Of a stretch of DNA of 57,976 nucleotides, positions 3,165-52,370 are shown piece by piece. Location of the stretch: the IMG/VR virus record IMGVR_UViG_3300028878_000001, positions 1 through 57,976 of that record; one strand, given 5' to 3'. The position numbers were made by a program, and so were the translations under genes. The DNA is from a virus (lineage: Duplodnaviria; Caudoviricetes). Numbering within the stretch: position 1 is the stretch's first letter; the number at the start of each line of letters is the position of its first letter. A model generated the notes under the pieces. That model saw nothing but the letters and a program-made list of their open reading frames with translations, searched no databases and was not told the origin of the DNA.

Positions 3165-4124
3165 TCAGGCGGCGGCAGGGGTGCCCACGGGGGCGGGCGG
3201 CACCTGCGTGAGGGCCTTGGTGCAGGGCGGGCACTTGGCCCGGCTGGTGCCGGTGTGGTCGCCGCGGGAGTGGGCCAGCAGCAGCACATACAGCGGCTGG
3301 TCGTCATCGCCGGCGGGAGTGTCGGCGGTTGGGGGCGAGGTGGCCGCGGGGGTGGCCGGCGTCGCCGGGTTGGTGGGATCGTCACCACGATCACCAGACG
3401 CACCAGCGGTGGTGGGCGTGGTGGGCGTGGGGTCGGTGGCGGCGGGGGCCGGGGCGGGGGCCGCACCAGGATCACCAGACGCACCAGCGGTGGTGGGCGT
3501 GGTGTTCTTGGTGCGAGAGGGGCGGCCGGCAGGGTCCGGGGTGGTGCGGCGGTCGCGGAGCTCACGGGCCATCGTCATGGCGGCCAGGCCACAGTCGGTG
3601 TCCTCATAGGCCGGATAGGTCACGCTGGACACGTCGAACAGCTCGACCTCCTGGAGGGTGCGCCGTTCGATCACCACACCAGGTTCGGTTTCGATCTCCT
3701 CCCACAGCTCACGGACAACCCGGAACCCGAAGCTCATCTGGCTCATATCGCCACGCTCCAGCGACACGGCCAGGTCCTGGCCGTAGCTGGTCGCGGCGAG
3801 CTGGGCGTCGACGGCCAGGCCGATCTTGTCCTCGGCCAGGGTCATGGTCCCGGCGGTGGTGCGGGCCAGGATCAGGTTGGGGTCGTGGTTGATCAGGAAC
3901 CGCACGTCGGACTCGCCGATGGTCTTGGCGAACGCACCCCGGGCGATGACCTCCTGGAAGCCCCACTTGGGGGGGCCGATCCAGGTTGGCGACTCGAAGA
4001 TGGCGGCGTGGCCGGTGAAGCGGATCTCGGTGTCGCCGTCGTCGGTGGTGGCGCGGACGGTGGCGGGGGTTCGGACTCGGCGCACCTCGATAGCGGTCAG
4101 GTCGCGCAGTCTTGGGTTGGCCAT
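3165..4124 (-). CDS. HK97-type prohead maturation protease with low-complexity C-terminal extension
   Basis: FTGHAAIF, FQEVIARGAF, FLINHDPN.ILART, MSFGF, ELFDVSSVTYPAY; between portal and capsid; start may be 4124 or 4136. Confidence 0.95.
   Translation of the reverse strand: MANPRLRDLTAIEVRRVRTPATVRATTDDGDTEIRFTGHAAIFESPTWIGPPKWGFQEVIARGAFAKTIGESDVRFLINHDPNLILARTTAGTMTLAEDKIGLAVDAQLAATSYGQDLAVSLERGDMSQMSFGFRVVRELWEEIETEPGVVIERRTLQEVELFDVSSVTYPAYEDTDCGLAAMTMARELRDRRTTPDPAGRPSRTKNTTPTTAGASGDPGAAPAPAPAATDPTPTTPTTAGASGDRGDDPTNPATPATPAATSPPTADTPAGDDDQPLYVLLLAHSRGDHTGTSRAKCPPCTKALTQVPPAPVGTPAAA
3389..3504. repeat. 35-bp direct repeat inside the protease tail
   Basis: GATCACCAGACGCACCAGCGGTGGTGGGCGTGGTG at 3389-3423 and 3470-3504; encodes TTPTTAGASGD twice. 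Confidence 0.9.
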
Positions 4125-4172
4125 GGGGGAATGCACCTCAGCGGAGGAGAGGGGAGCGCGGGGGGCGCGGGG

Positions 4173-4415
4173 TCAGGCGAGGGGGGTGTAGGGGTGGCCG
4201 ACCGGAAGCACCCACGACAGCCGGGCGGCGAGGGCCTCGGTGCGGGCCAGGGCCCGGTCGGCAGGTGGCGGCAGATCTGCGACCAGCAGCGCCACCGCGG
4301 TGTCGTGGTAGGTGTGGTCGCGGCGGTGGGTGGCGTCGTCGATGGTTCGGCCCACGTCGAAGCCGTGGGCTTGCTGGAGGTGTTCGGCGAGCGACCCGCG
4401 CTCAGGCCAGCGCAT
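4173..4415 (-). CDS. Hypothetical His-rich protein (80 aa)
   Basis: Fills the gap between portal and protease in the same orientation; HLQQAHG..H...H..H. Confidence 0.55.
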   Translation of the reverse strand: MRWPERGSLAEHLQQAHGFDVGRTIDDATHRRDHTYHDTAVALLVADLPPPADRALARTEALAARLSWVLPVGHPYTPLA

Positions 4416-4421
4416 CCGGGG

Positions 4422-5744
4422 TCACGCGGGGGGTTCGGGCTCAGCGCCAGCCGGCGGCTTGGGGGCGGCGGCCGGCGGGCGGGGGGCGGGTTTGGCGGTG
4501 GTGGAGAACGGCACCATCGCCCCTTGCATCAGCAGCTTGTCGCCACCGGGCACCGGGGGGCGGCCTTCGAGCTGGCGGGCCTCATTCACGGTCAAGATCG
4601 ACCCGGCGATGGCTTTGCTGTAGGCGTCGAACCGGCTGGGGGCGTCGCCGCGGAGCAGGTCGGTGAAGTCGATGCGGGCGAGCTGCCCGCGGGGGAGCAG
4701 CTCGTTGGAGACGACCTGCTCGACCCGGGTGGCGGGGGAGCGGAGGGTGTAGGCAACGAACGCCAGCATCTGCTGCTCGATCCCCGTGCCCCACGAGCTC
4801 GAGACCTCCACGTCGCCGAGGAGATGGGGGGGGATGCCGTACAACCGCGCGACTTCGGTGACCCCGAATTTGCGGGACTCGATGAACTGGGCGTCGTTGG
4901 GGGGCAGCGAGGTGGGGACGTATTTGGCGCCGTTGTCCAACACCGCGATCTCATGCGCATGGCTGAGCCCGGCGACCTTGGCCATCCACCGTTCCTTGAG
5001 GGCTTTGGCGTCGTCCTCTTCCAGGTCCGCGTCGGTCTGCAACACCCCACCAAGCAGGGAGCCGGACCCGAAGAGGCGGGCGCCGTACTCCTCAGCAGCC
5101 ACCGCCAGCCCGAGGGCCTGGCGGGCGCAGCCGATGGGGGAGAGGCCACGCTCCATCGAGCTGCCGAAGCCGCGGACATGGAGGACGTCTTGGGGGCCGG
5201 CGAGCTGCTGGTGGCCGCTGTCGTCCAGGATCCCGAAGATTTTGCCGGCGGGACCACCCAGGCCGGTGCGGGAAGGTTTGACGAGCTGGGGGTCGACCCG
5301 CCACGGCACGAGGCGTTCGAGGCGGACAATGTCGGTGCGGACCACGCTGGGGACTTTGACGGCGTAGGCGTTGCCCCAGGAGAACAGGTCCATGTAGAGC
5401 TGTTCCCACAGCACCATCGCCGGGTCGGAGCCGGGGTAGGGGATGGAGCTGATGGGGTCGCGGCCGGCGGGGAAGTCCAGCAGCAGTGAGGCGACCGGGA
5501 CGGGGGCGCCGTCTTCGATCCGGTAGGCCCGCAGCGGCAACGACGCCAGCGTCCCGGCCAGGAGGCTGAGGGCGCGGAACACCGCGATCGACTGGACGGC
5601 GTTGTCGACGGTGACGGTGGGGCCGGCGACGGTGCGGCCCGACCCGCCCATCAGGGCATGGGGGACGGTCTGCCAGCCGTAGAGGTTGTCGGTGCGGCGG
5701 TCGCGGCCGAGCAGGGCGTCGGTGAGGGCGCGGAGGACAGGCAT
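4422..5744 (-). CDS. Portal protein, HK97 family
   Basis: 440 aa; LASLPL, WGNAY, DVLHVRG, GLSPI, DAQFIESRKF...VARLYGIPPHLLG, LLRGD, LTVNEARQLEG.PP.PGGD. Confidence 0.96.
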   Translation of the reverse strand: MPVLRALTDALLGRDRRTDNLYGWQTVPHALMGGSGRTVAGPTVTVDNAVQSIAVFRALSLLAGTLASLPLRAYRIEDGAPVPVASLLLDFPAGRDPISSIPYPGSDPAMVLWEQLYMDLFSWGNAYAVKVPSVVRTDIVRLERLVPWRVDPQLVKPSRTGLGGPAGKIFGILDDSGHQQLAGPQDVLHVRGFGSSMERGLSPIGCARQALGLAVAAEEYGARLFGSGSLLGGVLQTDADLEEDDAKALKERWMAKVAGLSHAHEIAVLDNGAKYVPTSLPPNDAQFIESRKFGVTEVARLYGIPPHLLGDVEVSSSWGTGIEQQMLAFVAYTLRSPATRVEQVVSNELLPRGQLARIDFTDLLRGDAPSRFDAYSKAIAGSILTVNEARQLEGRPPVPGGDKLLMQGAMVPFSTTAKPAPRPPAAAPKPPAGAEPEPPA

Positions 5745-5750
5745 GGGGGG

Positions 5751-6014
5751 TTAGGACCTCAGATCAGCGAGCGTGGCTTCGGCGGCGTCGAACAAGGCGT
5801 CCTCGTCGACGTCGGTGCCGTACCGCCACGGCTCTGTGCCGTCGCCGTCAAGCTGCCATCCGACCGGGTTGCCGGCGTCGTTGTAGACCAGCCCGAGGGC
5901 GTAGCCGCGGGGATGCAGCACCGCCCGGTTGATCAGCCACAACAGGCCGGAGTCGCGCAGCTCACCGAACGGGCGGGGCGGCAGGCCGGCGGGCAGGTCG
6001 GGGAGCAACACCAT
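5751..6014 (-). CDS. Conserved small phage protein (87 aa)
   Basis: ATG overlaps the upstream stop; ELRDSGLLWLINRAVLHPRGYAL resembles a recurrent phage hypothetical family. Confidence 0.65.
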   Translation of the reverse strand: MVLLPDLPAGLPPRPFGELRDSGLLWLINRAVLHPRGYALGLVYNDAGNPVGWQLDGDGTEPWRYGTDVDEDALFDAAEATLADLRS

Positions 6015-6223
6015 CAGGTGCGGCGGGTGCGGAAGTTGGCCGCCACCAGCAGCATGAGCCCGGCCAACCCGACCGCCAGACGCGGCTCGTACAGGCCCAC
6101 ACACACACAGATGAGGGCGGCGCCGGTCAGCTCCACCGTCGGCCACAAGAGGTTGCGGGCGGTGCGGACCGGCCCTGCCAGCAGCCGCCGAAGCTCGGCG
6201 AAGTAGGTGACGAAGGGGCGCAT
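6014..6223 (-). CDS. Small membrane protein upstream of portal (69 aa)
   Basis: Two short hydrophobic segments (LTGAALICVCVGLY, LAVGLAGLMLLVAA); such genes commonly precede HK97 portals. Confidence 0.65.
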   Translation of the reverse strand: MRPFVTYFAELRRLLAGPVRTARNLLWPTVELTGAALICVCVGLYEPRLAVGLAGLMLLVAANFRTRRT

Positions 6224-6300
6224 GGGGGAACTGGCCTCGCAAACGGGGTAGGCTGCCAGGCGCACAGCAGACCGAGGGGGGGAAAGAAGGAGGAGGACGC

Positions 6301-6576
6301 ATGCCAGGTGGACGACTGCAGCCCGGGACGTTCCGGGCCGACGCCATCCAGGGCGACCCCACCGAGTACCTGCGCACCGCGGACACCAGCGGGGCCCCGA
6401 CGATCCTGGTGCTGCCGGGATCGCAGGGCCAGCGCGGCGGTGGCGGTGGGGTGGCGGGCGCGCAGGGGGTGGTGCTGTACCACGACAACGCCGGCGAGAG
6501 CGACTGGTGGACCCGGCTCACCGAGGCCTGCCAGGCCGGCGCGATGATCGAGGCCAGCTTCACCATCAAGAGCTGA
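6301..6576 (+). CDS. Hypothetical protein (91 aa)
   Basis: Strong AAGGAGGAGG RBS before the ATG; first gene of the plus-strand cassette. Confidence 0.65.
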   Translation: MPGGRLQPGTFRADAIQGDPTEYLRTADTSGAPTILVLPGSQGQRGGGGGVAGAQGVVLYHDNAGESDWWTRLTEACQAGAMIEASFTIKS

Positions 6577-6602
6577 CCGCCCAAGCGGGCGATGATCCGG
6601 TG

Positions 6603-6628
6603 GCTGGCCGCCCCGCGGGGCGGCCAGC
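6603..6628. promoter_or_regulatory. 26-bp perfect palindrome upstream of the HU gene
   Basis: GCTGGCCGCCCCG/CGGGGCGGCCAGC, intergenic. Confidence 0.5.
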
Positions 6629-6646
6629 ACCACAAGGGAGGCCGAG

Positions 6647-7204
6647 TTGAATCAGCAGGAACTGGCAACACAGATCGTGGCTCGGGCCCGCCAGGCCGGG
6701 TATGAGATCCCGGTGGAGGTGGTGACCCGAGGGCTGCTGCCGGCGTTCGAGGGCGCCACCGCAGCCGAGATCAAGCGGGGCGGCAAGGTGACCTTGCAGG
6801 GGTTCGGGACCTTCGAGCGTCGCGAACGCAAGGCACGGGTTGCCCGCAACCCCCGTTCGGGGGAGGCGATCAAGGTCAAGGCAACCAAGATCCCTGCGTT
6901 CAAGGTGTCGGCGCCGCTCAAGATCTATGTGGCTGGTGGCAAGTCGACCAGCACCCGCGCTCCGGCGTGGATGGGGATGACCGCGACGCCACGTGGTCGG
7001 GCGGCGGCAACATCGGCGACCCGCGCGACCAGCAGCAGCGGCCGCGGGACCAGCGCAACCCGGACCAGGACGTCGTCGTCCAAGTCGGGGTCGGGTCGGG
7101 GGCCGGGGCCGGTCAAGCGTTCAGCTCGGGCCGCATCCAGCACCCCCAGCTCCAGCTCCAGGTCGTCCAGGTCGTCGGGGTCCAGGCAGAGCCGACGCAG
7201 CTAG
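6647..7204 (+). CDS. hup: HU/IHF-family DNA-binding protein with Arg/Ser/Thr-rich C-terminal tail
   Basis: MNQQELA, GGKVTLQGFGTFERRERKARVARNPRSGEAIKVKATKIPAFK; TTG start with GGGAGG RBS. Confidence 0.92.
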   Translation: MNQQELATQIVARARQAGYEIPVEVVTRGLLPAFEGATAAEIKRGGKVTLQGFGTFERRERKARVARNPRSGEAIKVKATKIPAFKVSAPLKIYVAGGKSTSTRAPAWMGMTATPRGRAAATSATRATSSSGRGTSATRTRTSSSKSGSGRGPGPVKRSARAASSTPSSSSRSSRSSGSRQSRRS

Positions 7205-8542: not shown

Positions 8543-10132
8543 CTACCAGATCCGGGGGGTCTTGGCCTTCTCGGGTTCCAGCAGGGCCCCGTCCTCCACC
8601 GCGCGGCCTCTCGCTTCGTAGGCGAGGATGGCCGCTACCGCAGTGTCGATCCGGGCCGTCCGCTTCCGCTTCACGATGCGGAGGAAGAACGCCCCCAGAC
8701 TGTCGGGGTCGTCGCCGGGGGCCGGGTCGGCATCGCGGGGGGCCTTGCGTTTGCCCTTGGCCAACGCCGAATTCTTGATGTGGCGGGTGAGGGTGGGGTC
8801 GCCGTCATGCGACAGCTCGCCAGCCCGGAACGCGGTGAGGAAGCGGCTGAGGGCGGCGTCCATGCGGGCTTCGGAGTTGGTGGCCAGCTCGACGATCTTC
8901 TTGGGCCACAACCCGGCCCACTTGTCGAGGTAGTCGGTCCAGCGATACGGGTCGCAGAACACATACCAGACGTCGTAGGCGTCCATGACCTGGGCCATGG
9001 TCGCGTCGACCTCGCCGGAGGGGACACGCCAGTCCAGCGGCGCGTCGGCCGGCCGTTCCCACGTCTTGATGGGGAACAGGCGGCCGTCGCGGATGCGGCA
9101 GGCAACCAGGGCAGTGCAGTCTTGGGTCTTGCTGCCATCGAACCCACACGCGATCCGCTCCCCGGCGACCAGGGGGTCGCCTGGGAAGCCGCGGGTGTCC
9201 CAGGCGACCGGGTCGACCAGGTCGCGGTCGCCCACGGTGACCAGGGTGAGGAAGTAGCGGCGAGCATCGGCCGGGCTGGTGGAGGGGTCGAGGATCTCGG
9301 CGATGATCCGGTCCAGGTTCACCCAATGGCTGTCGCCGTAGCAGTGCCGCAACGCACGTCGGAGCTCGCCGCGGTTGTGCAGCGACACGGTGGGGTCGGG
9401 GGCGGGCCGCCAGTCCAGGTACACGTCGGGGGCTTTGGCGCGGTGGGTCCGCTGCGCAACCGAGTCCTCGGACGGGTCGTAGGCATTCGAGATCTCGGCC
9501 CAGCGGCCGTCCATCCCGGCCAGGTTCCGTTTCAGGTTGGAGGCCAGGGTGTGGCCACCCGACGCGCGGGTCCACAGATGCGGCTCCCCGAGGACCGCGA
9601 AGGTGATCCGCGCACCAAGGCGCGAGGGGGCGGCTGAGCTGACCGGCTCGATCAGCCCGCCGGAGGGGAGGTTGATGCGGGTCTGCCCGACATCCAGGCC
9701 GGGGGTGCCCGAGAGGGGGCCGTCGGCAAGCATGGTGAAGATGGGCCGCCAGGTGTTGGCGGTCTGGTCCTCGGAGACGGCGGCGACCTGGATCCAGGGG
9801 GTCGGCCACGGGCGGCCGGCCGGCTCACCGGTGTCGGTCCAGTGGTCGAACAGCACCGGGGCCAGGGCCTCGGCGCACACCATCGCCGCAGCCAGCGGAT
9901 CCTTGCCCCACTTCTGCGAGCGGACGAGCTGGCTGCCGCGGTAGGCGAAGCGGCCGTCGGCCGGGTTGAGGCGGTAGTGGAAGAGCAGGAACCGCTGCTG
10001 TTCGGGGGTCAAAAGGAAGGGGGCGCCGGCCAGGACCCCATCGGGGACCACCAGCCACTTCTCGATCCAGTCGATGACCAGATACCCGAGGGTGGGGAAC
10101 TCCCCAGGGAAGCTCCGACCACGCCAGGGCAT
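8543..10132 (-). CDS. terL: Terminase large subunit
   Basis: 529 aa; RSQKWGKD (Walker A variant), QVAAVSEDQTANT, GFDGS...DCTAL, RIDTAVAAILA nuclease motifs. Confidence 0.95.
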   Translation of the reverse strand: MPWRGRSFPGEFPTLGYLVIDWIEKWLVVPDGVLAGAPFLLTPEQQRFLLFHYRLNPADGRFAYRGSQLVRSQKWGKDPLAAAMVCAEALAPVLFDHWTDTGEPAGRPWPTPWIQVAAVSEDQTANTWRPIFTMLADGPLSGTPGLDVGQTRINLPSGGLIEPVSSAAPSRLGARITFAVLGEPHLWTRASGGHTLASNLKRNLAGMDGRWAEISNAYDPSEDSVAQRTHRAKAPDVYLDWRPAPDPTVSLHNRGELRRALRHCYGDSHWVNLDRIIAEILDPSTSPADARRYFLTLVTVGDRDLVDPVAWDTRGFPGDPLVAGERIACGFDGSKTQDCTALVACRIRDGRLFPIKTWERPADAPLDWRVPSGEVDATMAQVMDAYDVWYVFCDPYRWTDYLDKWAGLWPKKIVELATNSEARMDAALSRFLTAFRAGELSHDGDPTLTRHIKNSALAKGKRKAPRDADPAPGDDPDSLGAFFLRIVKRKRTARIDTAVAAILAYEARGRAVEDGALLEPEKAKTPRIW

Positions 10133-10611
10133 CAGCCGGTGTCTTGGGCCCGGACCCGCGGCCGGGCCGGCGGGGGCTCAGGCGCGGCCGGAGGCATAGA
10201 GGCAGGAGGGGGACTCTCGGCCGTCTGCGGCTCAGGGGGTGTGGGGTCGGCGACGATGTCCCAGCGGAGCCGGGCCAGCGCCATTGGTGTCAGGCCAAGC
10301 CTGTCCTCAAGTTGCCGCAGCTCAGCCAGCGCGGACGTGGCCACATCGGCGGGCACACCAACCTCGGCGGCGACGGTCCAGCGCACGTACCTGGCGACGA
10401 CCCGGGCCAGCCCGGCGCCCATGTCGGCCCAGGCGACCGCCTGCGGGCTTGCCCACAGCTCAGCCCACAGCTGGGCCTCGGGGTCGCCGGCGGCCTGGAG
10501 CGGCCAGGGTGGGGGGGGACCGGGGCGGCCGGCGGCCGGGAGCAGACGAGCGGCCGGGGTGTGGTTGCGGCGGCGGCGGGATGCTTCTGGTGCTGGGGGG
10601 GGACCGGGCAC
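10132..10611 (-). CDS. terS: Terminase small subunit, actinophage type
   Basis: GTG start; PGPPP..RRRRN, WAELWASPQAVAW, ELRQLEDRLGLTP.AL.RLRW; stop overlaps the terL start. Confidence 0.88.
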   Translation of the reverse strand: MPGPPPAPEASRRRRNHTPAARLLPAAGRPGPPPPWPLQAAGDPEAQLWAELWASPQAVAWADMGAGLARVVARYVRWTVAAEVGVPADVATSALAELRQLEDRLGLTPMALARLRWDIVADPTPPEPQTAESPPPASMPPAAPEPPPARPRVRAQDTG

Positions 10612-10623
10612 AATGGCCTCGCG

Positions 10624-10836
10624 ATGACAGGGGATGGCGGCTTGATGCCGGCCCGGTTGCGGCTCCAGGTCACCCGGGGCCGCCAAGGCACCGATGGGAC
10701 GCTGGTGGTGGCGATCCCCTCCCCTGACGACGTCGACGGGGTGGCGGTGGTCGAGACGACCTTGGAGGCCGGGCGGGCCGCGGCGGCGTTGTGGCTGGAT
10801 GCCGTGTTCACCTGGTCCAAGTGGCGCCGGGGGTGA
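10624..10836 (+). CDS. Hypothetical protein (about 70 aa)
   Basis: Divergent from terS; GTGA coupling to the next ORF; start uncertain. Confidence 0.4.
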   Translation: MTGDGGLMPARLRLQVTRGRQGTDGTLVVAIPSPDDVDGVAVVETTLEAGRAAAALWLDAVFTWSKWRRG

Positions 10837-13928: not shown

Positions 13929-14240
13929 TCATGAGCCAACCTGCTGGCCATCCAGCCAGACGAACTCGACCAGCGGCCGATGCAGCCCGCAGCGGGTGCA
14001 GTAGGTGCCGCCGTAGAAGTCGGGCTGGCGGGCGTAGGTCTCGGCGATCGCCGCGCCCATGCTGGTGACCTTCTGGCACGGCAGATGCTTGTAGGCCTCC
14101 CGCAGCGGCCGCACGAACCCCTTGGCGCGCTCAGCCTCCGACAGCACCAGGTACACCTCGGCCTGGTCGACCGGGGTGAGGTCGGGGCCGTGGGTGAGGC
14201 GCGGGTCCGAAGGGTCGGTGGTGACGCCGGGGCTGGTCAC
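13929..14240 (-). CDS. Conserved Zn-binding hypothetical protein (103 aa)
   Basis: YLVLSEAERAKGFVRP..Y.H..C...T.M..AIAETYAR.P.FYGGTYC..C....P..EFVW. Confidence 0.75.
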   Translation of the reverse strand: MTSPGVTTDPSDPRLTHGPDLTPVDQAEVYLVLSEAERAKGFVRPLREAYKHLPCQKVTSMGAAIAETYARQPDFYGGTYCTRCGLHRPLVEFVWLDGQQVGS

Positions 14241-14461
14241 TGGGCCTCCTGCAGGGGGCTCTGGTCGGCGGCGAGGGCTTCCAGCTCCCAGTCGGCCAGG
14301 TCCTCGCCGACCAGCTCGTCATCGAGGTCGTCGTTGCTGTCGAAGCGGGGCATCGGCAGCGACCACCAGTAGGCCGGGTCTTCCTCGTGGGGTTGGCCGT
14401 CGCAGCCCAGCAGGCAGGGGTCGGTCAGGTCCTCCGCTGGGGGCAGAGACAAGATTGCCAT
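14237..14461 (-). CDS. Small acidic protein (74 aa)
   Basis: GGAGG RBS; D/E-rich C-terminal half. Confidence 0.55.
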   Translation of the reverse strand: MAILSLPPAEDLTDPCLLGCDGQPHEEDPAYWWSLPMPRFDSNDDLDDELVGEDLADWELEALAADQSPLQEAQ

Positions 14462-14665
14462 CGGTTTCCTCCGATAACGCCAGGTCAAATGGGGTGCGCC
14501 CGGATCGGGCGGATCGGGCTCGGGTTGCTCGGTATCCCGTACGAACCGCGAGGTACCAATCTCGGGGGTCACAGGCAGGGTCGGCCGCGAAGTTTCAGCC
14601 CCACCCCGGCCGCGTCGGGCCGGCGTGCGGTGTGCGCGGGCGGGGCGTGGTAGGGTCTGCGGCGT

Positions 14666-14739
14666 CGCGGGGTAGTGCAGCCTGGTAGCACGCCGGACTC
14701 ATAATCCGGAGGTCGGGGGTTCAAATCCCCTCCCCGCCA
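14666..14739 (+). tRNA. tRNA-Met(CAT), initiator-like
   Basis: Full cloverleaf: CGCGGGG/CCCCGCC acceptor with C1xC72 mismatch, GTGC/GCAC D stem, CCGGA-CTCATAA-TCCGG, GGGGG-TTCAAAT-CCCCT, discriminator A; followed by CCG, so CCA is not fully encoded. Confidence 0.93.
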
Positions 14740-14743
14740 CCGT

Positions 14744-14944
14744 TCAGCGGGCCCGCCAGCCAAGCAGGGTCACGGTGTTGGTGGCGACGGCACGCACGTG
14801 GTGGTGGCCGTCGCTGTCGACCAGCTCCACGCTGAGGGCCCGGCCGGCCTCGTGGTACAGGCTGACTTGGGTGGGGCCGAGCTCGACGGTGACCCGGCCA
14901 GGGCCAGGGTCAGCCACGGTCAGGCGTTCGATGCCATCCACCAT
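14744..14944 (-). CDS. Hypothetical protein (66 aa)
   Basis: TGATG coupling to the dioxygenase gene; ends 4 nt from the convergent tRNA. Confidence 0.45.
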   Translation of the reverse strand: MVDGIERLTVADPGPGRVTVELGPTQVSLYHEAGRALSVELVDSDGHHHVRAVATNTVTLLGWRAR

Positions 14945-15819
14945 CAGCCAGCAGCCGCCAGGCGGCGTGCGGTCTGGGTGTCAGCCAACTGCTGGGCACG
15001 CTGGGCCTCAGCCTCGGCGGTGCCGCAGGCGACCATCTTGGTGCGGTAGTAGGCCACCACACTGATCCGCTCGGCATCCTCAGACAGGGGGGTGAGGGTG
15101 GTGTTGCCGTGCCACTCATGGGCGTCCATCAGCAGCAGATCCCCGTCCTGCATATCCACGCCGACCCGGTACTCGGGGAACAGGAAGATCCCCCCGCTGT
15201 AGGTACCCCGACGCAGCACGGTGAGGTTTGAGAAGCCAGCCTCGAGGTCGCCCTTGTCGGTGTGGACCCCGGTGGGGTAGGTGTTGTTGACGGTGATGGT
15301 GGTGAAGGGGGTGCCGGGGATGACCCAGTCCGGCTCGGTGCGGGCCACCTGGGCCATCTGCGCGGCGTAGCGGTCGGGGACCAGCGCAGCGAACTCCTGA
15401 CCGATGGCCTGGAACAGCGGGCGCAGCTCAGCGAACCGTTCGGTCTCCCGGCCGGTCCAGGCGGTCAGGCGGCAGAAGTGGTAGGGGCTGGAGCGGTTGT
15501 AGGCACCGATGATCGCTGAGCTGGTGGGTTTGGTGTAGGTGCGGGAGCCGGCGTACATCCGCACCCGTGGTGTCCCCGAGGCCAGCCCGCGGTTGGTGGT
15601 CTTCTCCGAGCGCAGGCTGTGGAGGGTCGGGTAGGAGGCCTCCAGGAGGGCGGGGGGGAACGCGTGCTTGCGGTAGATGCACAGGATGGTGCCGTCGGGT
15701 TTGCGGACCAGCGTGTCCCTCGTGAGCAGGACGTTGTAGTCGTCGTCGGTGCAGACCTTGCCGATCTTGTCGTCCAGCTCGGCACCACTTACCCGAGAGC
15801 GGATGCGTAGGTCGATCAT
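14944..15819 (-). CDS. TET/JBP-family 2OG-Fe(II) dioxygenase
   Basis: Start MIDLRIRSR (ATGA overlap, GGAGG); FTTITVN.T.PTGVHTDKGD (HxD), LLMDAHEWHGNT (distal H), ERISVVAYYR (2OG-binding R). Confidence 0.9.
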   Translation of the reverse strand: MIDLRIRSRVSGAELDDKIGKVCTDDDYNVLLTRDTLVRKPDGTILCIYRKHAFPPALLEASYPTLHSLRSEKTTNRGLASGTPRVRMYAGSRTYTKPTSSAIIGAYNRSSPYHFCRLTAWTGRETERFAELRPLFQAIGQEFAALVPDRYAAQMAQVARTEPDWVIPGTPFTTITVNNTYPTGVHTDKGDLEAGFSNLTVLRRGTYSGGIFLFPEYRVGVDMQDGDLLLMDAHEWHGNTTLTPLSEDAERISVVAYYRTKMVACGTAEAEAQRAQQLADTQTARRLAAAG

Positions 15820-16382
15820 GGGGTCAGTCCTCCTGGCCAGCACAGCGCCCGCAGATCCTCCGCGGCGCCGGGCCCACCCAGCCGGAGTGCCTGGTAGGCG
15901 TCGGCGAGGTGGGCGGTCTTGGTGATCCGTCCCCGGATCCACCGTTCGTTCTGGGCACGCCAAGGGGTTCGTGCGGCGCGGCGCTGGGCGGCGACGGCGG
16001 GGGGTGTTGCCAGCAGCACCACCTGCAGGTCGATGCCGACCGAACAGCAGATGTCGAAGAAGCGGGCGTTGGCGAGCCGGTCTCCTTCGGCAACGACCAG
16101 CCGGTAGGGGTGGCCGGCGATCCAGGCTTGCGCGGCCGGTTGGATGCTCATGCTGAGGGCGTCGGTGCCGCCGAACAGCTCGCGGGAGCGGCCGAGGTGG
16201 GCGCCGACGACCCTGCCGCTGGAGCAGCCCACAGGGCGGCTCAGCAGCTCATGCGGCACCGGAAGACGTTGGGGGGTGCGCTGGAGCCCGGCGAGGGCCT
16301 GGTTGAGCAGGGTGGTTTTGCCGGCGCCGGGCTCACCGATCACATACACCAGCCGCGTTGGAGGGGTCACCGGAGGGGTCAC
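15816..16382 (-). CDS. P-loop nucleotide kinase, putative 5hmdU-DNA kinase
   Basis: VIGEPGAGKTT, FGGTDALSMSIQP, VAEGDRLAN..F, RAQNERWIRGR.TK; inside the modification operon. Confidence 0.85.
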   Translation of the reverse strand: MTPPVTPPTRLVYVIGEPGAGKTTLLNQALAGLQRTPQRLPVPHELLSRPVGCSSGRVVGAHLGRSRELFGGTDALSMSIQPAAQAWIAGHPYRLVVAEGDRLANARFFDICCSVGIDLQVVLLATPPAVAAQRRAARTPWRAQNERWIRGRITKTAHLADAYQALRLGGPGAAEDLRALCWPGGLTP

Positions 16383-17392
16383 CGGAGGGGTCCGGCCATC
16401 ATCTGGCGGGTAGGGGCGCTCCCGACGATCCAGAACACGCTCTCACCGGCTGCCGGCCGCCAGAACCATCGGAACATGGCCTGATGCTGGGCCATGAACG
16501 TGACCGCCTTGCCTTCGTAGGTGGGATGCAGCGCGATCCCATCCAGGGTGTAGGGCATCCGATCCTGGTAGGTGGCGAACCGCTGGTGGTGGAGGTCGTG
16601 GTACTCCAGCCTGACCGCGGCGAGGGGATCACGGAGCCCCAGCAAGCTGCGGATGCGGTCCAGGCGATCCAGGGTCCAGTCGAGCCGGGAGGGCCCAACT
16701 CCGAACAGCACCAGCCGCTCAAGGGCCGGTGGCAGGTGGTGGGCGAGGCCAACCAGCACCGAGGTGGCGCTGTTGCCGGAACCGAGGGTCATGGCCAGGG
16801 TGCGAGTCGCATCGGGCAGGTTGACGGTCTGGTGGGCCCCGACGGCGTGGAACGCGGCCAGGTCCTCAACCGACGCGCCGGTGGGGGTGCTGATGCCGTA
16901 GGCGAGCCGATAGTGGCCCGAGTACTCCCGGGTGCGGGCCAACTGGCTGACCGCCCGCTGCAACGCCGGGTTGTAGGCGACGGGGGTGTAGCGGAAGCTG
17001 GCGCCGGCGTCTTCGGCGATGGCGACGTTCTCGTGGCGGCGGGCCGAGACGGAGTTGGTCGCGCCGAGCATGATGGTGGCACCGAGCCGGTAGTGCTTGG
17101 CGACCAGCGCCGCCATCGAGACTTGGGGGGAGAGCACGGAGGCGGCGGTGAGGACTCCGGCGCGGCCGCCGGCAGCCCAATAGCGGTGGACGAGGTAGAT
17201 GAGCTGGCGCAGCTTGGACCCGTTGATGCCGCCATACCCCAGCGGCGCGAAGGTGTCCTCCCGCTTCCAGCCGATTCCGCTGTCCCCGGTTTGGATGGGG
17301 GTGAGCCCGGCCAGGTAGTGCTCCCAGCGTACGTCGGCCCGGTCCAAGCTCAGGGTCGGGAAGATGCTGCCGGTCTCGGCCAGGACGGTCAT
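16379..17392 (-). CDS. PLP-dependent enzyme (fold type II), putative decarboxylase/lyase acting on modified DNA
   Basis: WKRED.FAPLGYGGINGSKLRQL (PLP Lys), S..SPQ, GSGNS, LHPTYEGK, FWIVG. Confidence 0.85.
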   Translation of the reverse strand: MTVLAETGSIFPTLSLDRADVRWEHYLAGLTPIQTGDSGIGWKREDTFAPLGYGGINGSKLRQLIYLVHRYWAAGGRAGVLTAASVLSPQVSMAALVAKHYRLGATIMLGATNSVSARRHENVAIAEDAGASFRYTPVAYNPALQRAVSQLARTREYSGHYRLAYGISTPTGASVEDLAAFHAVGAHQTVNLPDATRTLAMTLGSGNSATSVLVGLAHHLPPALERLVLFGVGPSRLDWTLDRLDRIRSLLGLRDPLAAVRLEYHDLHHQRFATYQDRMPYTLDGIALHPTYEGKAVTFMAQHQAMFRWFWRPAAGESVFWIVGSAPTRQMMAGPLR

Positions 17393-18480
17393 CGGCAGCG
17401 CCCAAACCCTTGGGCGTCGACCTTGGCTTGGAAGTCGTTGGTGAAGGCGGGGTCGTCGTGGTCGAGCATCACCTGCTGGCCGGTGAGCCGGTAGTGGTTC
17501 TGCTTGGCTGGCACCATCCCCGGATCGAACGGGGAGTCCTCCAACCTGAGCGCGCGGGGCAAGGCGACGGCGCGGGCTTCCCAGAACAGCCCCAGATCGG
17601 CGGTTGGCCAGCGGTCCTCCATCTGGCGGATGCGGTCATGGAGCATGTCGTTGTAGACGTTCGGGTAGCGGCGGTTGGGACGATGCCAGCTCTTGTAGGT
17701 GCACAGCGCCGACTCCAGGGTGAAGTTGCCGACGTCACCCGCCCAGGGCTGACCGCGGGCGCGGATGCGGGCCTCAGCCAGCAGCACCTTGGCGGCGCCG
17801 GTCAGATACGACAGCTCCGACGGGGTGTAGCGGCCATCGAAGCCCGGGTTGCTGGAGTGCCAGTCGAGGGTGTCCAGGCCCAGCACCTTGCACAGCCCGT
17901 TGCGGTGGCTCTTGGACCCCTGGCGGTCACCGAGCATCAGGGTGTCGCAGTCGAGGACGTTGATGCGGCCGGCGCCGGCGATGCGCAGGTACTCGGTGAA
18001 CGAGAACGCGCTCAGGCGGCCGAAGGTGGGGATCTGCCGGGCGCGACGCCACACCTCAGCGAACCCGCCGTAGGTGGCGTGGTCCCAGTAGGCAGCCTGC
18101 GACGGCCACCCCTTCAGGTTGGCCAGGTAGCCGGCGGTGGCGGTGTCGAGGGCCTTTTTGTGGTAGCGGCGGTCGGTGTCGAACGCGAGACGGCCGTACT
18201 CCCTGCGCCAGAACCGCAGCATCCGCCCGGCTCGGGCGGGGCGGTCGCCGGCGGTGTGGAGCAGCAGCGAGGTGACGGGGTGTTGGGTGTTGCCGTTCAG
18301 GAACGCGAACCACAGGGCCTGCTCCGTATCCCAACCCAGCCGGTCGGCAAGGTGGGGAAGCAGGTAGTAGACCCCACCGGGGTGGGCGCGGTGGCGGAGG
18401 TGGAACTGGTAGAAGCGGTGGAACACCTCCCGCCGCAGCCCAGGGGCGCGGAAGTCCATGCCCGGCTGGAGGTCGATCAT
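17389..18480 (-). CDS. Amino-acid:DNA transferase (aG/PT-PPlase, clade 2-like)
   Basis: HPGGVYY, ALWFAFLNGNTQ, DTDRRYHK, FGRLSAFSFTEYL, SHRNGL, FTLESALCTYKSWH...RRYPNVY.DM. Confidence 0.85.
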   Translation of the reverse strand: MIDLQPGMDFRAPGLRREVFHRFYQFHLRHRAHPGGVYYLLPHLADRLGWDTEQALWFAFLNGNTQHPVTSLLLHTAGDRPARAGRMLRFWRREYGRLAFDTDRRYHKKALDTATAGYLANLKGWPSQAAYWDHATYGGFAEVWRRARQIPTFGRLSAFSFTEYLRIAGAGRINVLDCDTLMLGDRQGSKSHRNGLCKVLGLDTLDWHSSNPGFDGRYTPSELSYLTGAAKVLLAEARIRARGQPWAGDVGNFTLESALCTYKSWHRPNRRYPNVYNDMLHDRIRQMEDRWPTADLGLFWEARAVALPRALRLEDSPFDPGMVPAKQNHYRLTGQQVMLDHDDPAFTNDFQAKVDAQGFGRCR

Positions 18481-18818
18481 CGGCGGTGGCGGGTGAGCTT
18501 GGCGGCTTGGGTGCGGACGAGCCGTTCGAGTTCTTCGGCGACCAGCTCGGCCACGGTGTCGCGGATGGTGGGGTGGCCGCGGACGTCGGTGAGATGCTGC
18601 AGCCCGTTGACCACGCTGGTGTAGGTGGCGGCCGGGTAGCGCATCACCAGCTCCTGGAGATGCACCCGTTCGGCTTGGGGGCCGCGGCGGGTGGCGCGCT
18701 CGGCGGTCTCGGCTTCGGTTTCGGCGTAGCTGCCCCGGAACCGCTCGGGGGTGGTGATGGGGGTGCGGCCGGCCGCGGCGGCGGCGTCGTCGGCCGCGTC
18801 GGCGTCGTCTGGGGTCAT
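18477..18818 (-). CDS. Hypothetical protein heading the modification operon (113 aa)
   Basis: ATGA overlaps at both ends; GGAGG RBS. Confidence 0.65.
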   Translation of the reverse strand: MTPDDADAADDAAAAAGRTPITTPERFRGSYAETEAETAERATRRGPQAERVHLQELVMRYPAATYTSVVNGLQHLTDVRGHPTIRDTVAELVAEELERLVRTQAAKLTRHRR

Positions 18819-19087
18819 GGTTCCTCCGTGGTTGCCCGGCCAGCGCGGGCGCGGGCGACCCGCACCGGCTCGCGTGCGCCGGTGTAGTGCGGGGGCCGCT
18901 GGTGGTGCTGTCGGCGCAGGGTCCCGGCCTGGCGGCCGAGGGCTTGGGAGAACACCCGCTGCAGGGCCCGACGCTGGGTGCGGGTCAGCCACCCCTCGTC
19001 TTCGTCGGGGGGGGTCAGCTCACCCGGGGTCGCCCGGTCAGGTTCGCCGGCGGCCAGCGCAACGTCCGGGGGGTCAAGCTGCTGCAT
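18815..19087 (-). CDS. Hypothetical protein (about 90 aa)
   Basis: Fills the gap between clpP and the next gene with overlaps. Confidence 0.45.
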   Translation of the reverse strand: MQQLDPPDVALAAGEPDRATPGELTPPDEDEGWLTRTQRRALQRVFSQALGRQAGTLRRQHHQRPPHYTGAREPVRVARARAGRATTEEP

Positions 19088-19808
19088 GGGCGATGCCGCC
19101 GCGGACCTCATCGACGAACCCGAGCCGCAGGGCCTCGCCGGCGTCCAGCCACCAGTCCTTGCGCTTCCACTTGCGGGCGATCTGGGTGCGGGTCATCGTG
19201 CTGCGTTCGGCGAGGATGTCGAGGATGCGGTCCTGCAACCGTTTGACGAACACGACTTCGTCCTCGAGCTCGCTGGCGCCACCCCACGCCAAGGAGCTGA
19301 CCTCGTGGATCAGCATGTAGGCGTTGGGGGCCAGCACCCGGTGCGAACCGGCCTGCAGCAGGATCCCGCCCATCGAGGCGGCCATGCCCATCCCGACGGT
19401 GGTGATCTCGTGGCCGTCGGCGCGCAGCTCCAGCAGGTAGTCGAACAGCGCCAGGCCGTCGAACACGCTCCCACCGGGGGAGTTGAAGATGAGCTTGATC
19501 GGCTGGGTGGGGTCGCGGCGAGCCCAGATGCCCAGCTCGGTCAGGGCCTTGGCCACACTGACGGCGCCGACCTCGCCGTAGAAGGTGAGGATGCGGTGCT
19601 CGGAGGCGTCGGCGTTGTCGCGGCGGTGGTAGATCTCGTCCCGCAGATACTGCTGGTCGGTGCGGCGGGTGTCGGCCTTGAGCTTGGCGATCTCGGCGCG
19701 GAGGCGGTCGGCTTCCAGCTCTTCCAGCACCGGCGACACCGGCGACACCACCAGCTCGGCGGTGGCCGGCTCAGCGGCGGCGGCGGGCTTCGGCTTGCGT
19801 GGGGTCAA
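19074..19808 (-). CDS. clpP: ClpP-family serine protease with N-terminal helical extension
   Basis: TTG start behind AAGGAGG; IFNSPGGSVFDG, GMAASMG (Ser), MLIHE (His), KDWWLDA.EAL.LGFVDEV (Asp). Confidence 0.9.
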   Translation of the reverse strand: MTPRKPKPAAAAEPATAELVVSPVSPVLEELEADRLRAEIAKLKADTRRTDQQYLRDEIYHRRDNADASEHRILTFYGEVGAVSVAKALTELGIWARRDPTQPIKLIFNSPGGSVFDGLALFDYLLELRADGHEITTVGMGMAASMGGILLQAGSHRVLAPNAYMLIHEVSSLAWGGASELEDEVVFVKRLQDRILDILAERSTMTRTQIARKWKRKDWWLDAGEALRLGFVDEVRGGIAHAAA

Positions 19809-20110
19809 GGGTTCCTCCTTGGGCAGCCGCCGGTGGTGTGGATCCGGGAGGGCTGGGTCGACCAGATGCGGTCGGGGGCGGCCAGGTCTCGGCAGACCAG
19901 GCACGGGCCCGGGCGATGCCGGCAGGGGGGGCGGCCGGCGGTGGCGGCTGGGGCGTGGGCGTCGCAACGCCACACCCTTGACACGACCGGGACGCGGTCG
20001 ACGGTGGTGACGGTGAGGCGGCGGGCCCAGCGGGCAGGGTCGCCGCAGACCTCACACAGCGGGCCGGCACCCAACCCAACCGGGATCCAGCGGTCGGCGC
20101 CGAAGTTCAC
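19805..20110 (-). CDS. Cys-rich hypothetical protein
   Basis: CEVC...CDAH...CRH..CLVC; coupled at both ends. Confidence 0.45.
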   Translation of the reverse strand: MNFGADRWIPVGLGAGPLCEVCGDPARWARRLTVTTVDRVPVVSRVWRCDAHAPAATAGRPPCRHRPGPCLVCRDLAAPDRIWSTQPSRIHTTGGCPRRNP

Positions 20111-20424
20111 ACGAACACGCGGGCGAGCGCGTCGGTCAGGTTGGTGTTGGTCGGGCTGGTGTAGCGCAGCCAGGAGGTGGGGGTGGGGGTGTAGCGCACC
20201 TGGAACCCGAAGCTGTCGGCCCGCCGTCGCTCCCGGGCACACGCCAGGCAGTCGGGGCGGCAGCCGGCAACGGGACGCAAGGTGACCACGTTGCTGGCTG
20301 GCCTGGGGGTCGGCTGGGCAGGAGGGGGGGTGGGGTCGGGGAAGGTCGCCTCGATCTCGACCTCCCGGACCAGGTTCCCCGAGTCGGCGTCGTAGCTGCG
20401 GGTGGTGGCGCGAACGGTCGTCAT
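20107..20424 (-). CDS. Hypothetical protein (105 aa)
   Basis: ATGA overlap with the HNH stop; GGAGG RBS. Confidence 0.55.
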   Translation of the reverse strand: MTTVRATTRSYDADSGNLVREVEIEATFPDPTPPPAQPTPRPASNVVTLRPVAGCRPDCLACARERRRADSFGFQVRYTPTPTSWLRYTSPTNTNLTDALARVFV

Positions 20425-20795
20425 GGGTTCCTCCGGTGGCGTTGGCTGCCGCCCCGGCTGCTGTTGCCGGCGCGGCACATGACCCGCAGCGGCCCATCCT
20501 CGGGGCCGAAGTCGGGGGGGCCGACCGGGATGAGGTGGTCGGCGGTGAGGGGGTTGCGGTCAGGGTCGGCGCTATGGGGCTGGCTGTCGCTCAGGGGGCA
20601 GCCCGGGCAGACGTAGCCGTGGACCTGGACATGGTTGGCGACCACCTTGGAGCGGCGGGTCCGTTCGGCGGCGCCATAGCCGGGCCGGCGCCGCCGGGGG
20701 CGGGGCGGGTTGCGGTGGGCCTGGCAGCGGGGCCGGTCGGACAGCTCACCGCACAAGCGGGTGAGGTGCAGGCGGGCCACGCACGGCTTGAGCAC
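20421..20795 (-). CDS. Terminase-associated HNH endonuclease
   Basis: PC...C...RC..H N-terminal knuckle, GYG, CPGC, LTADH.IP, LRVMCRAGNSSRG. Confidence 0.82.
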   Translation of the reverse strand: MLKPCVARLHLTRLCGELSDRPRCQAHRNPPRPRRRRPGYGAAERTRRSKVVANHVQVHGYVCPGCPLSDSQPHSADPDRNPLTADHLIPVGPPDFGPEDGPLRVMCRAGNSSRGGSQRHRRNP

Positions 20796-45528: not shown

Positions 45529-46146
45529 TCAGGCAGCCACCGCGGCGGCCGCGGCAGGCTGGACGGTGCGGCCCAGGCTTTCCCATTCGGTGTAGGGCCA
45601 GCGGGTGCCGCAGTCGTGGCAGACCACCAGCCCAGCCTGCGGCAACCCAACCAGGGTGCCGGTGCAGACCCCACCGTCGTCGATCAGATCCAGGTCGACC
45701 ACCGGGCACGCTACCCCAAGCGGGATCGCGCGGCTGGACAGCCCGAGGACGCGGCGGGCCGCGACCACCAGCGCATGGAGCCAGTCGGCCACCTCCGGGC
45801 CGGTGTCGAGCTCGGCCAGGGCAGGCGCGGCCCGATCCAGGAACCGCAGGGCCTCGGGCACCCGCGGAGACTGCCGATACCGCACATCCAGCGGCCCCGA
45901 AACCCCCATCCCGAGGGCGTTCTTGGCCTGGACTTCCATCTGCAAGCAGGCGGCGTTGACCTCATGGATAAGGTCGATGACGTCCTCGCGGGCCGGGCCG
46001 GGGGGGTCGTTGCGGTTGCTGCTGTTCTTCTCGCGGGCGGCCTGGCCGCGGATGGTGGCGGGGAACAGGTCCGGGTACAGCCGGCCCAGGGTGCGGGCGT
46101 TGCGTTCGATGCGGCCACAGAGCCGCTCGGTGGCGGGGGTGGTCAT
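45529..46146 (-). CDS. Actinophage protein with C-terminal Zn ribbon, possible late regulator
   Basis: ATGA overlap with whiB; ACP...CTGTL...VCHDCG..W....W..LG. Confidence 0.7.
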   Translation of the reverse strand: MTTPATERLCGRIERNARTLGRLYPDLFPATIRGQAAREKNSSNRNDPPGPAREDVIDLIHEVNAACLQMEVQAKNALGMGVSGPLDVRYRQSPRVPEALRFLDRAAPALAELDTGPEVADWLHALVVAARRVLGLSSRAIPLGVACPVVDLDLIDDGGVCTGTLVGLPQAGLVVCHDCGTRWPYTEWESLGRTVQPAAAAAVAA

Positions 46147-46643
46147 GCGGCGCTCCAGGTTCCCGGCCCAGCGGACGGCTTGAGCCGGCCCGGGTCGACG
46201 TGGTTGCGGCGGGCGATGGTCTGGTCGAGGTCGACCATGCGGCGGGCCTGACCGGTGGGGGAGATGCCGGCTTCGGTGTCGAGCTGGCCGGCTCGGGCCC
46301 ACAGATGGATGACCTCCTCGGAGATGCCGAGGAGGCGGGCAGCCTCAGCGACCGGCAGCCAGCGGCCATGGGCGGGGGGGCGGGGGGTGCCGGGCTGCCA
46401 GCGTTGGAGGCGCAGCAGCTCCCGGTCGGTGTCGGTGGTGCCACCCCAGATGCCTTGCAGCGGGTCTCCGGTGGCGGTGCGGCCCCGGTAGCCTTCGGCC
46501 AGGCAGAGGTCGCGGACGGGGCAGCTGGCACAGTCGGCCAGGGCCAGCCACGGGGCGGGGGTAGCCCAGTCGCCTGGTTCAGGGGTGAAGGCGTCGGGGT
46601 TCGGGGTGCCGCGGCATGCGGCGCGGTTGTGCCACCCAGACAT
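46143..46643 (-). CDS. whiB: WhiB-family Fe-S regulator fused to a MerR/Xis-like HTH
   Basis: W..RAAC..., C..CPV..LC, GIWGG; then LPVAEAARLLGISEEVIHLWARAGQL. Confidence 0.88.
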   Translation of the reverse strand: MSGWHNRAACRGTPNPDAFTPEPGDWATPAPWLALADCASCPVRDLCLAEGYRGRTATGDPLQGIWGGTTDTDRELLRLQRWQPGTPRPPAHGRWLPVAEAARLLGISEEVIHLWARAGQLDTEAGISPTGQARRMVDLDQTIARRNHVDPGRLKPSAGPGTWSAA

Positions 46644-51953: not shown

Positions 51954-52370
51954 TCAGGTTTCGATGGCGGTGTAGCGCCAGTGGCAGCGGGCACCGTCGC
52001 CGGTCATGTCCTCGAACCGGATGCCGACCTTCCAGCCGGTGGGGACGTACAGCAGGCCGGTCCAGCACAGCTCCCGGCCGGGTGGGACCTCGACCGGGGT
52101 GATGCCGCCGGGGGCGAAGCGGGCATGGTCGGTTTCGGGGTCTTGGCCGTCCAGCAGCAGGAAGGTGGCCAGGTTGGGGTGGTCTTCGGCGTTGTGGGCG
52201 TAGATGGACTGGAGGATCCACAGCTTGCCGACCGGGACGCCGACGTGGGGGCGGGTCGACACCGCCGGGCCCGGTTTGGAGTCCCACGACACCGACTCCC
52301 CGATGACATCGCGGCCCATCGGGTAGCGGGCGCTCAGCGACCGGATGGGAGTGCGGGTGAAGATGGTCAA
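51954..52370 (-). CDS. Hypothetical beta-rich protein (138 aa)
   Basis: TTG behind AGGAGG, overlapping the GT2 stop. Confidence 0.55.
   Translation of the reverse strand: MTIFTRTPIRSLSARYPMGRDVIGESVSWDSKPGPAVSTRPHVGVPVGKLWILQSIYAHNAEDHPNLATFLLLDGQDPETDHARFAPGGITPVEVPPGRELCWTGLLYVPTGWKVGIRFEDMTGDGARCHWRYTAIET

Follow-up and report, generated by a model that had tools for sequence, protein, structure and literature searches.

A five-gene operon in a high-GC phage contig and its probable post-replicative route to a hypermodified thymine

How might a phage hypermodify thymine if it carries no recognizable enzyme that would supply 5-hydroxymethyldeoxyuridine (5hmdU) to the nucleotide pool? The question is raised by the IMG/VR virus record IMGVR_UViG_3300028878_000001, in which five overlapping genes encode a fragment of a ParB-like protein, an amino acid:DNA transferase (AADT, formerly aGPT-Pplase and named ADDT in Pfam), a pyridoxal phosphate (PLP) enzyme, a P-loop kinase and a TET/JBP-family Fe(II)/2-oxoglutarate dioxygenase (5mYOX). 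The window analyzed here is the entire contig, which is linear and 57,976 bp long. TET neighborhoods of this kind are reported to have been originally predicted by Iyer et al. in 2013. The best explanation of the five genes is that they form one translationally coupled operon for thymine modification in finished phage DNA. In our overall reading, to which we give a probability of roughly two in three, T is oxidized in DNA, phosphorylated, aminoacylated and trimmed, all after replication; the evidence consists of homologies, motifs and gene linkage, from which we infer every enzymatic step.

The operon and its dioxygenase

The five genes lie on the minus strand in the order ParB linker and C-terminal domain (113 aa, 18477..18818), AADT (363 aa, 17389..18480), fold-type II PLP enzyme (337 aa, 16379..17392), kinase (188 aa, 15816..16382) and TET (291 aa, 14944..15819), and all cassette junctions are overlaps. 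The sequence ATGA joins the ParB-fragment gene to the AADT gene, the AADT gene to the PLP gene and the kinase gene to the TET gene, GTGA joins the PLP and kinase genes, and TGATG joins TET to the next open reading frame (ORF). The TET start was placed at the ATG at 15819, which shares an ATGA with the kinase stop and has AGGAGGA in front of it; for these two reasons the start of the longest ORF, at 15963, was rejected. A first-pass annotation had reported four translationally coupled genes here, and these hold up, the AADT, the kinase and TET by Pfam and the PLP enzyme by homology to ViI gp226, but it overlooked the fifth coupled gene, that of the ParB C-terminal fragment. The arrangement is not a chance one, since the order ADDT-PLP-kinase-TET is also found in a related locus (L017, with the full order ParB-ADDT-PLP-kinase-TET) and a rearranged set is found in another (L007).

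The TET protein matches PF12851 at an E value of 5.4e-21 (74.9 bits, cut-off 34.9). Residues H186, D188, H234/H237 and R251, invariant across 25 relatives, are what we take to be the iron triad (H186/D188/H234/H237) and the 2-oxoglutarate arginine (R251). The AlphaFold model (predicted local distance difference test (pLDDT) 90.6, predicted template modeling (pTM) score 0.87) has a double-stranded beta-helix fold like that of solved TET structures, and its top Foldseek matches were CcTet (7vpn), TET2 (7ne6) and NgTet1 (4lt5), at E 2.6e-13 to 1.7e-12 and template modeling (TM) scores of 0.58-0.69; a sequence profile of the TET gave no match among PDB sequences at E<=1. A C-terminal extension of 25 residues follows C265-G266, with a helix modeled at 268-290. 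Helical C-terminal extensions are reported only from ParB-dependent enzymes in the study of O'Toole et al. 2026 (PMC13229309), and a length of 291 aa is typical of phage enzymes of the TET/JBP family. In most TETs of the 30 related loci described below, a Cys-rich insert separates the distal His motif from the Arg motif; the window TET is without it.

Which base would this enzyme oxidize? The comparison set comprised 30 IMG/VR loci whose TETs are 42-56% identical to the window TET; their ORFs were clustered, representatives were scanned against Pfam, and a home-built ParB profile was run over six frames. In 24 of the 30 loci TET has a ParB-like gene upstream of it, the representative of which matches PF02195. 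Among the six ParB-less loci, L006, L015, L026 and L031 have less than 2 kb upstream of TET, L023 begins inside the ADDT gene, and L007 gave no ParB match in 4.8 kb upstream of TET. Phage 5mYOXs of clades C1 and C2 convert T to 5hmU (5-hydroxymethyluracil) in E. coli and in vitro, and clade C1, described as post-replicative T-dioxygenases, is linked to P-loop kinases and AADTs (PMC13229309). ParB association is the published signature of clade C1, so its presence around the nearest TETs supports T as the substrate of the window enzyme. The predicted oxidation of T is thus supported by a resemblance to clade C1, a placement made by the ParB-neighbor proxy and not by the published tree. The window, like clade C1, has no adjacent C5-methyltransferase gene; it departs from the ParB-dependent members in that only part of a ParB partner is present.

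As the first step of the pathway, the dioxygenase would hydroxylate the methyl group of T in polymer DNA to give 5hmU, probably at a subset of sites. This step is suggested by the assays of related phage enzymes, by the lack of a 5-methylcytosine (5mC) or 5hmdU source in the window and by the neighboring genes. A partial or site-restricted modification, as had been proposed from the sequence at the outset, fits the NTR and YTY preferences of the characterized T-dioxygenases, which converted at most ~25-35% of T (PMC13229309).

The whole window was searched in all six frames, with a threshold of E<=1, for PF00303 (thymidylate synthase/hydroxymethylase), PF00145 (C5-methylase), PF02195 (ParB N-terminal domain) and PF20691 (TET-associated glycosyltransferase), with positive controls that responded, for PF00303 in 10 of 14 genomes. 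Neither PF00303, PF00145 nor PF20691 was found in the window. PF00303 was also missing from all 30 virus records in which the nearest TETs occur, two of which have direct terminal repeats, and from the complete genome of mycobacteriophage Prince; PF00145 occurred in one of the 30. One-by-one Pfam scans covered 54 of the 114 ORFs predicted from a codon-usage gene call, and these gave no reported match to a DNA polymerase family; PHROG scans covered 24, and the remaining, mostly small, ORFs were covered solely by the four six-frame family searches. A 427-aa GT2-family glycosyltransferase (52367-53650, minus strand) was considered as a DNA glycosyltransferase and rejected, as its best matches are PgaC, NodC and cellulose synthase, its C-terminal half is hydrophobic and 34 kb separate it from the cassette; it resembles a membrane polysaccharide synthase and probably acts on a glycan of the cell envelope or of the virion. 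The first-pass annotation is therefore borne out in its claim that hydroxymethylase, C5-methylase and DNA glycosyltransferase are lacking from the window, and, given the ParB-associated nearest TETs as well, its proposal of a TET-initiated, post-replicative pathway without 5hmdU from the nucleotide pool is strengthened.

Kinase, transferase and PLP enzyme

In the second step the kinase would phosphorylate the new hydroxyl, giving 5-phosphomethyl-deoxyuridine (5-PmdU). The protein matches PF18751 (Ploopntkinase3) at E 3.2e-35 and is 40% identical to mycobacteriophage Prince gp4, with no match to PF18748 or PF18747 at E<=0.01. By Pfam scan, M6 gp54 belongs to PF18748 and ViI gp243 to PF18747, and PaMx11 gp49 gave a weak PF18748 match of 18.1 bits, under the 27-bit cut-off. 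Of the 30 related loci, 14 have a kinase homolog beside TET, among them every one of the 13 with an ADDT-family gene, and it is this constant pairing of the kinase family with ADDT (and TET) genes that points to the proposed role. Drawn from context only, phosphorylation of 5hmU is the weakest step of the pathway. PHROGs and a number of records label the family 'terminase small subunit'.

The AADT would then displace the phosphate with a free amino acid, most likely serine via its side-chain oxygen. The enzyme matches PF18724 at E 2.8e-13 (50.6 bits, cut-off 26.2); the characterized transferases ViI gp247 and M6 gp51 score 197.6 and 159.6 bits, respectively, against the same family. By BLASTP it is 27% identical to the serine:DNA transferase ViI gp247 (E 3.6e-20), and its E values to the glycine transferases are 0.9 (M6 gp51) and 0.08 (PaMx11 gp46). 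It is 54% identical to Prince gp3. The Prince gene (L002, PQ184799, 5930-6904) is mislabeled 'DNA glycosylase', and in sister phages the labels are 'nucleotide pyrophosphohydrolase' or 'hypothetical protein'.

The PLP enzyme, which has no Pfam match at E 0.01, is a homolog of the ViI gp226 decarboxylase (33% identity over 380 alignment columns, E 2.5e-59, residues 9-332). The motif GINGSKLRQ is identical in the two proteins, and K60 aligns with gp226 K92, proposed as the internal-aldimine lysine of an enzyme that was modeled on PDB 1j0a (PMC8989533). PDB 1j0a was also the sole PDB sequence match of the window enzyme (E 0.004); TIGR01275 matched weakly, and 349 phage records, mostly ViI-like, were matched.

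In ViI, gp247 attaches serine to 5-PmdU and gp226 decarboxylates the O-SerT so formed; in M6, where glycine is N-linked, a radical-SAM isomerase has to free the amine before the PLP step can follow (PMC8989533). No radical-SAM isomerase is present in the cassette, and none was matched by Pfam among the 54 scanned window proteins. Since the glycine route requires one, O-linked (side-chain) serine is predicted here; the ViI-like affinity of the AADT and the free alpha-amine needed by the next step favor the same attachment. The AADT and the PLP enzyme are far nearer to the ViI pair than to the glycine enzymes, so an O-serinyl intermediate followed by decarboxylation is expected. In this fourth step the gp226-like enzyme would decarboxylate the adduct to a 5-(2-aminoethoxy)methyl-dU-like base (dU, deoxyuridine). 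As the product of this locus, that base is a tentative prediction from homology, with the odds somewhat against it.

The window thus resembles the ViI 5-NeOmdU pathway (gp67/gp243 kinases, gp247 and gp226; PMC8989533) in its homologous AADT and PLP enzymes with the same lysine motif, and in the logic of kinase, then transferase, then decarboxylase, all on polymer DNA. The two differ at the start, where ViI makes 5hmdU before replication and has its own DNA polymerase, whereas the window has a TET/JBP enzyme instead and no hydroxymethylase. They also differ in kinase family (PF18747 for ViI gp243, PF18751 in the window) and in gene layout, the genes being scattered in ViI and gathered into one overlapping operon in the window. 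Trypanosome JBP1/2 provide a parallel for the first step, as there too a TET/JBP enzyme hydroxylates T in DNA to begin a hypermodification; base J is finished by glucosylation, in contrast to the phosphorylation and aminoacylation proposed here. No TET-associated glycosyltransferase is present in the window, whereas 14 of the 30 relatives have a candidate (weak PF20691, E 0.005). This glycosyltransferase branch and the ADDT branch, the latter in 13 of the 30, never occur together (0/30 loci; L003-L032), and the PLP enzyme is found in just two loci, L007 and L017.

Prince-type cassettes, known from annotation, resemble the window in belonging to actinobacterial phages and in preceding the terminase. 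At the left end of the Prince genome, gp1 (ParB-like), gp2 ('thymidine hydroxylase'), gp3 (AADT) and gp4 (kinase) are followed by the terminase. Prince-type phages differ from the window in having a full-length ParB (L002) and no PLP enzyme, and the Prince TET is a distant relative of the window TET (27% identity, E 1e-9). Rhodococcus phage Tonitrus has a similar cassette, again at annotation level (PMC11955845), and for assayed thymine modification in actinophages the literature that we searched gave annotation-level notes only.

Contigs that combine TET_JBP with T-hypermodification genes and no hydroxymethylase were described by Lee et al. 2021, who deduced that T is converted to 5hmU in DNA (PMC8989533). 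With the architecture explicit both there and in PMC13229309, the novelty first assigned to this locus was set too high. What is new here is the joining of a ViI-type decarboxylase to a TET start (shared by two of the 30 relatives), the product prediction and a conserved ParB that consists of the C-terminal domain (CTD) only.

A conserved C-terminal ParB fragment

Searched with a profile of 24 ParB-like TET neighbors, the 113-aa protein aligned at positions 131-230 of 238 only (E 1.8e-11). Positions 1-130 of the profile had no match in any frame of the window, nor did PF02195 in the six-frame search. The start ATG of this gene comes after a GGAGGA and forms an ATGA with the stop codon of the preceding ORF. 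Nine further homologs (97-119 aa, 67-87% identical) share the same start position and have 50 invariant columns, and a recorded 86.5-kb contig encodes an identical 113-aa protein. DNA relatives of the gene were found neither in viral contigs nor in a first metagenome scan; a second scan gave one 1.2-kb locus. The metagenome fragment L036 (83% nucleotide identity) has the order ClpP, small ORF, short ParB, ADDT, with a ClpP 96% identical to that of the window and, in the same place, a 70% identical counterpart of the 90-aa ORF that precedes the fragment gene. In this single pair the short ParB gene has a dN/dS of 0.41.

A second CTD-only ParB, a 114-aa ORF at 4227-4571 on the plus strand (profile positions 120-222), is present in L037, a contig of a metagenome-assembled genome labeled Ktedonobacterales, where it is followed by a candidate TET-associated glycosyltransferase, a TET (5932-6858, 55% identical) and the large terminase. 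The 114-aa and 113-aa proteins gave no BLASTP match to each other at E<=0.01. To judge from these sequences, the short ParB is a real conserved gene and no one-off truncation, and the CTD-only form recurs independently in L037. We found no description of this short form in the literature that we searched; the supplements of PMC8989533 and PMC13229309 list many neighborhoods and may contain it.

A model of the 113-aa protein (pLDDT 89.4) had no Foldseek match in the PDB at E<=0.001, and the weak rows, at E ~1, were the ribbon-helix-helix entries Arc, CopA and NikR. A protein atlas search gave a score of 0.91 to clusters with PF18064 (CB_ParB_C); both results serve as leads only. A complex prediction of TET with two copies of the protein, made without controls, scored 0.68, 0.00 and 0.01, the median falling under the mark.

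Compared with the 5mYOX176/ParB176 system of clade C1 (PMC13229309), the window has the same ~290-aa Tet_JBP enzyme with a helical C-terminal extension, the same linkage to a kinase and an AADT, no adjacent C5-methylase and the same position upstream of the terminase; it differs in a partner reduced to linker and CTD and in the addition of a PLP decarboxylase. The 113-aa fragment is a reduced form of the ParB activator found with this TET clade and, in a fifth element of the pathway, would probably still modulate the dioxygenase or its hold on DNA. A stronger version, that linker and CTD suffice to switch on or target TET, so that the protein is a natural minimal activator and the CTP-binding (cytidine triphosphate-binding) N-terminal domain is dispensable, strikes us as possible but rather doubtful. 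If true, the CTD, possibly a ribbon-helix-helix-like dimer, would be the part that couples the enzyme to double-stranded DNA, and the window would represent a third subclass of phage T-dioxygenases beside the ParB-dependent and the ParB-independent ones.

Competing explanations, genomic setting and meaning

Several observations weigh against a functional post-replicative thymine pathway. The contig is an estimated 73% complete (CheckV), and genes for a hydroxymethylase, for a methylase or for a ParB N-domain on its own may lie in the missing part. The Pfam family of the kinase differs from those of all three characterized 5hmdU DNA kinases scanned, and its BLASTP E values are 0.46 to M6 gp54 and 0.023 to PaMx11 gp49. 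In ParB176, the one ParB tested by truncation, both domains were needed, and removal of the N-terminal one brought 5hmU to 0%, so a CTD-only partner may fail to activate; no activity was seen for some ParB-less C1 enzymes in earlier screens, and the authors call the role of the N-terminal domain unresolved (PMC13229309). Loss of the ParB N-domain could accordingly have left the TET inactive or nearly so, with little or no T modified and the downstream genes drifting or repurposed, and full-length ParB is indeed the rule (24 of the 30 loci and 7 of the 10 genome loci). We nevertheless consider an impaired cassette unlikely, because none of the five genes is disrupted, their coupling is tight and the catalytic residues are retained, and because the short ParB has the same start in nine further homologs, a dN/dS below 1 in the one pair and an independent recurrence in L037. 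Moreover, 5mYOX176 ceased to need ParB once its variable insert was swapped (PMC13229309), and ParB independence is therefore evolvable. That the contig is incomplete also leaves room for a different substrate, in which TET would oxidize 5mC from a host or unseen phage methylase and the kinase, transferase and PLP enzyme would build a cytosine hypermodification. Phage clade A/B TETs are 5mC dioxygenases, the characterized T-dioxygenases oxidize 5mC in vitro too (PMC13229309), and Burke et al. suggest that P-loop kinases might phosphorylate 5-hydroxymethylcytosine in some contigs (PMC8256090). This seems improbable to us given the absence of PF00145 from the window and from all but one of the related records, the homology of the AADT and PLP enzyme to enzymes acting on 5hmdU derivatives, and the ParB association, typical of the T-dioxygenase clade, around the nearest TETs. 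Least probable of all is a supply of 5hmdU from the nucleotide pool by a hydroxymethylase in the unseen 27% of the genome, with another role for TET: the ViI and M6 clusters do lie near thymidylate-synthase homologs, but the lack of PF00303 extends from the window to the related records and Prince, no DNA polymerase family was seen among the scanned proteins, and TET would be redundant.

The steps up to the phosphate may also be as proposed and the final chemistry another, involving a different amino acid or amine, or a PLP reaction other than decarboxylation. At 27% identity to the ViI serine transferase, and with 54% to uncharacterized mycobacteriophage enzymes that are its closest cultured relatives and lack a PLP partner, the AADT leaves the amino acid a guess; AADTs for serine, glycine and putrescine are known (PMC8989533), and the PLP fold family includes deaminases and desulfhydrases. 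Against this stand the full-length match of the PLP enzyme to the ViI decarboxylase with its identical lysine motif, and the requirement of PLP chemistry for a free primary amine, which favors side-chain attachment. We regard a different ending as a substantial minority possibility. The final base, called unknown in the first-pass annotation, is narrowed by the homology to the ViI pair to a ViI-like, serine-derived base.

The contig is high in GC (~71% along the whole window), and nearly all of its ORFs are on the minus strand. Capsid (1684-2988), S78 prohead protease (3165-4136), portal (4422-5744), large terminase (8543-10132) and small terminase (10132-10686) genes were identified; tail genes are lacking, which means that the contig breaks off past the capsid gene. 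Upstream of the cassette, past two small ORFs, lies a ClpP-family protease gene (19074-19808, minus strand), additional to the S78 prohead protease, and a WhiB-like regulator is encoded at 46143-46643. Directly adjoining the cassette are a 66-aa ORF over the TET stop (14744..14944, minus strand), which has no Pfam match, and the 90-aa ORF over the start of the ParB-CTD gene (18815..19087, minus strand; ATGA), with no Pfam or PHROG match. Runs of small overlapping minus-strand ORFs with ATGA-type coupling flank the cassette on both sides (13929-14572 and 19805-20795), and no family was matched by them; most remaining window proteins, among those scanned, had no match in Pfam, PHROGs or NCBIfam. 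An intact tRNA-Met (14666-14739, plus strand; anticodon CAU, CCA end, Rfam tRNA 66.5 bits) sits in a 171-nt gap directly after the cassette, on the strand opposite to every flanking gene, and could be a phage tRNA or the trace of an integration site. Three features indicate an actinobacterial host: the WhiB-like regulator, the GC content and the hosts in which related prophage-like loci occur, among them Streptomyces, Microbispora, Actinomadura and Haloechinothrix.

Protection from host nucleases is the likely benefit to the phage. The general pathway has been published, and what the locus adds is a member from a high-GC actinobacterial phage, with a testable ViI-type base that would be made wholly after replication. 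With a conserved, natural CTD-only ParB, the question of which half of ParB matters can be put directly. In vivo, a compact cassette of five genes would install a positively charged thymine modification without any rewiring of the nucleotide pool.

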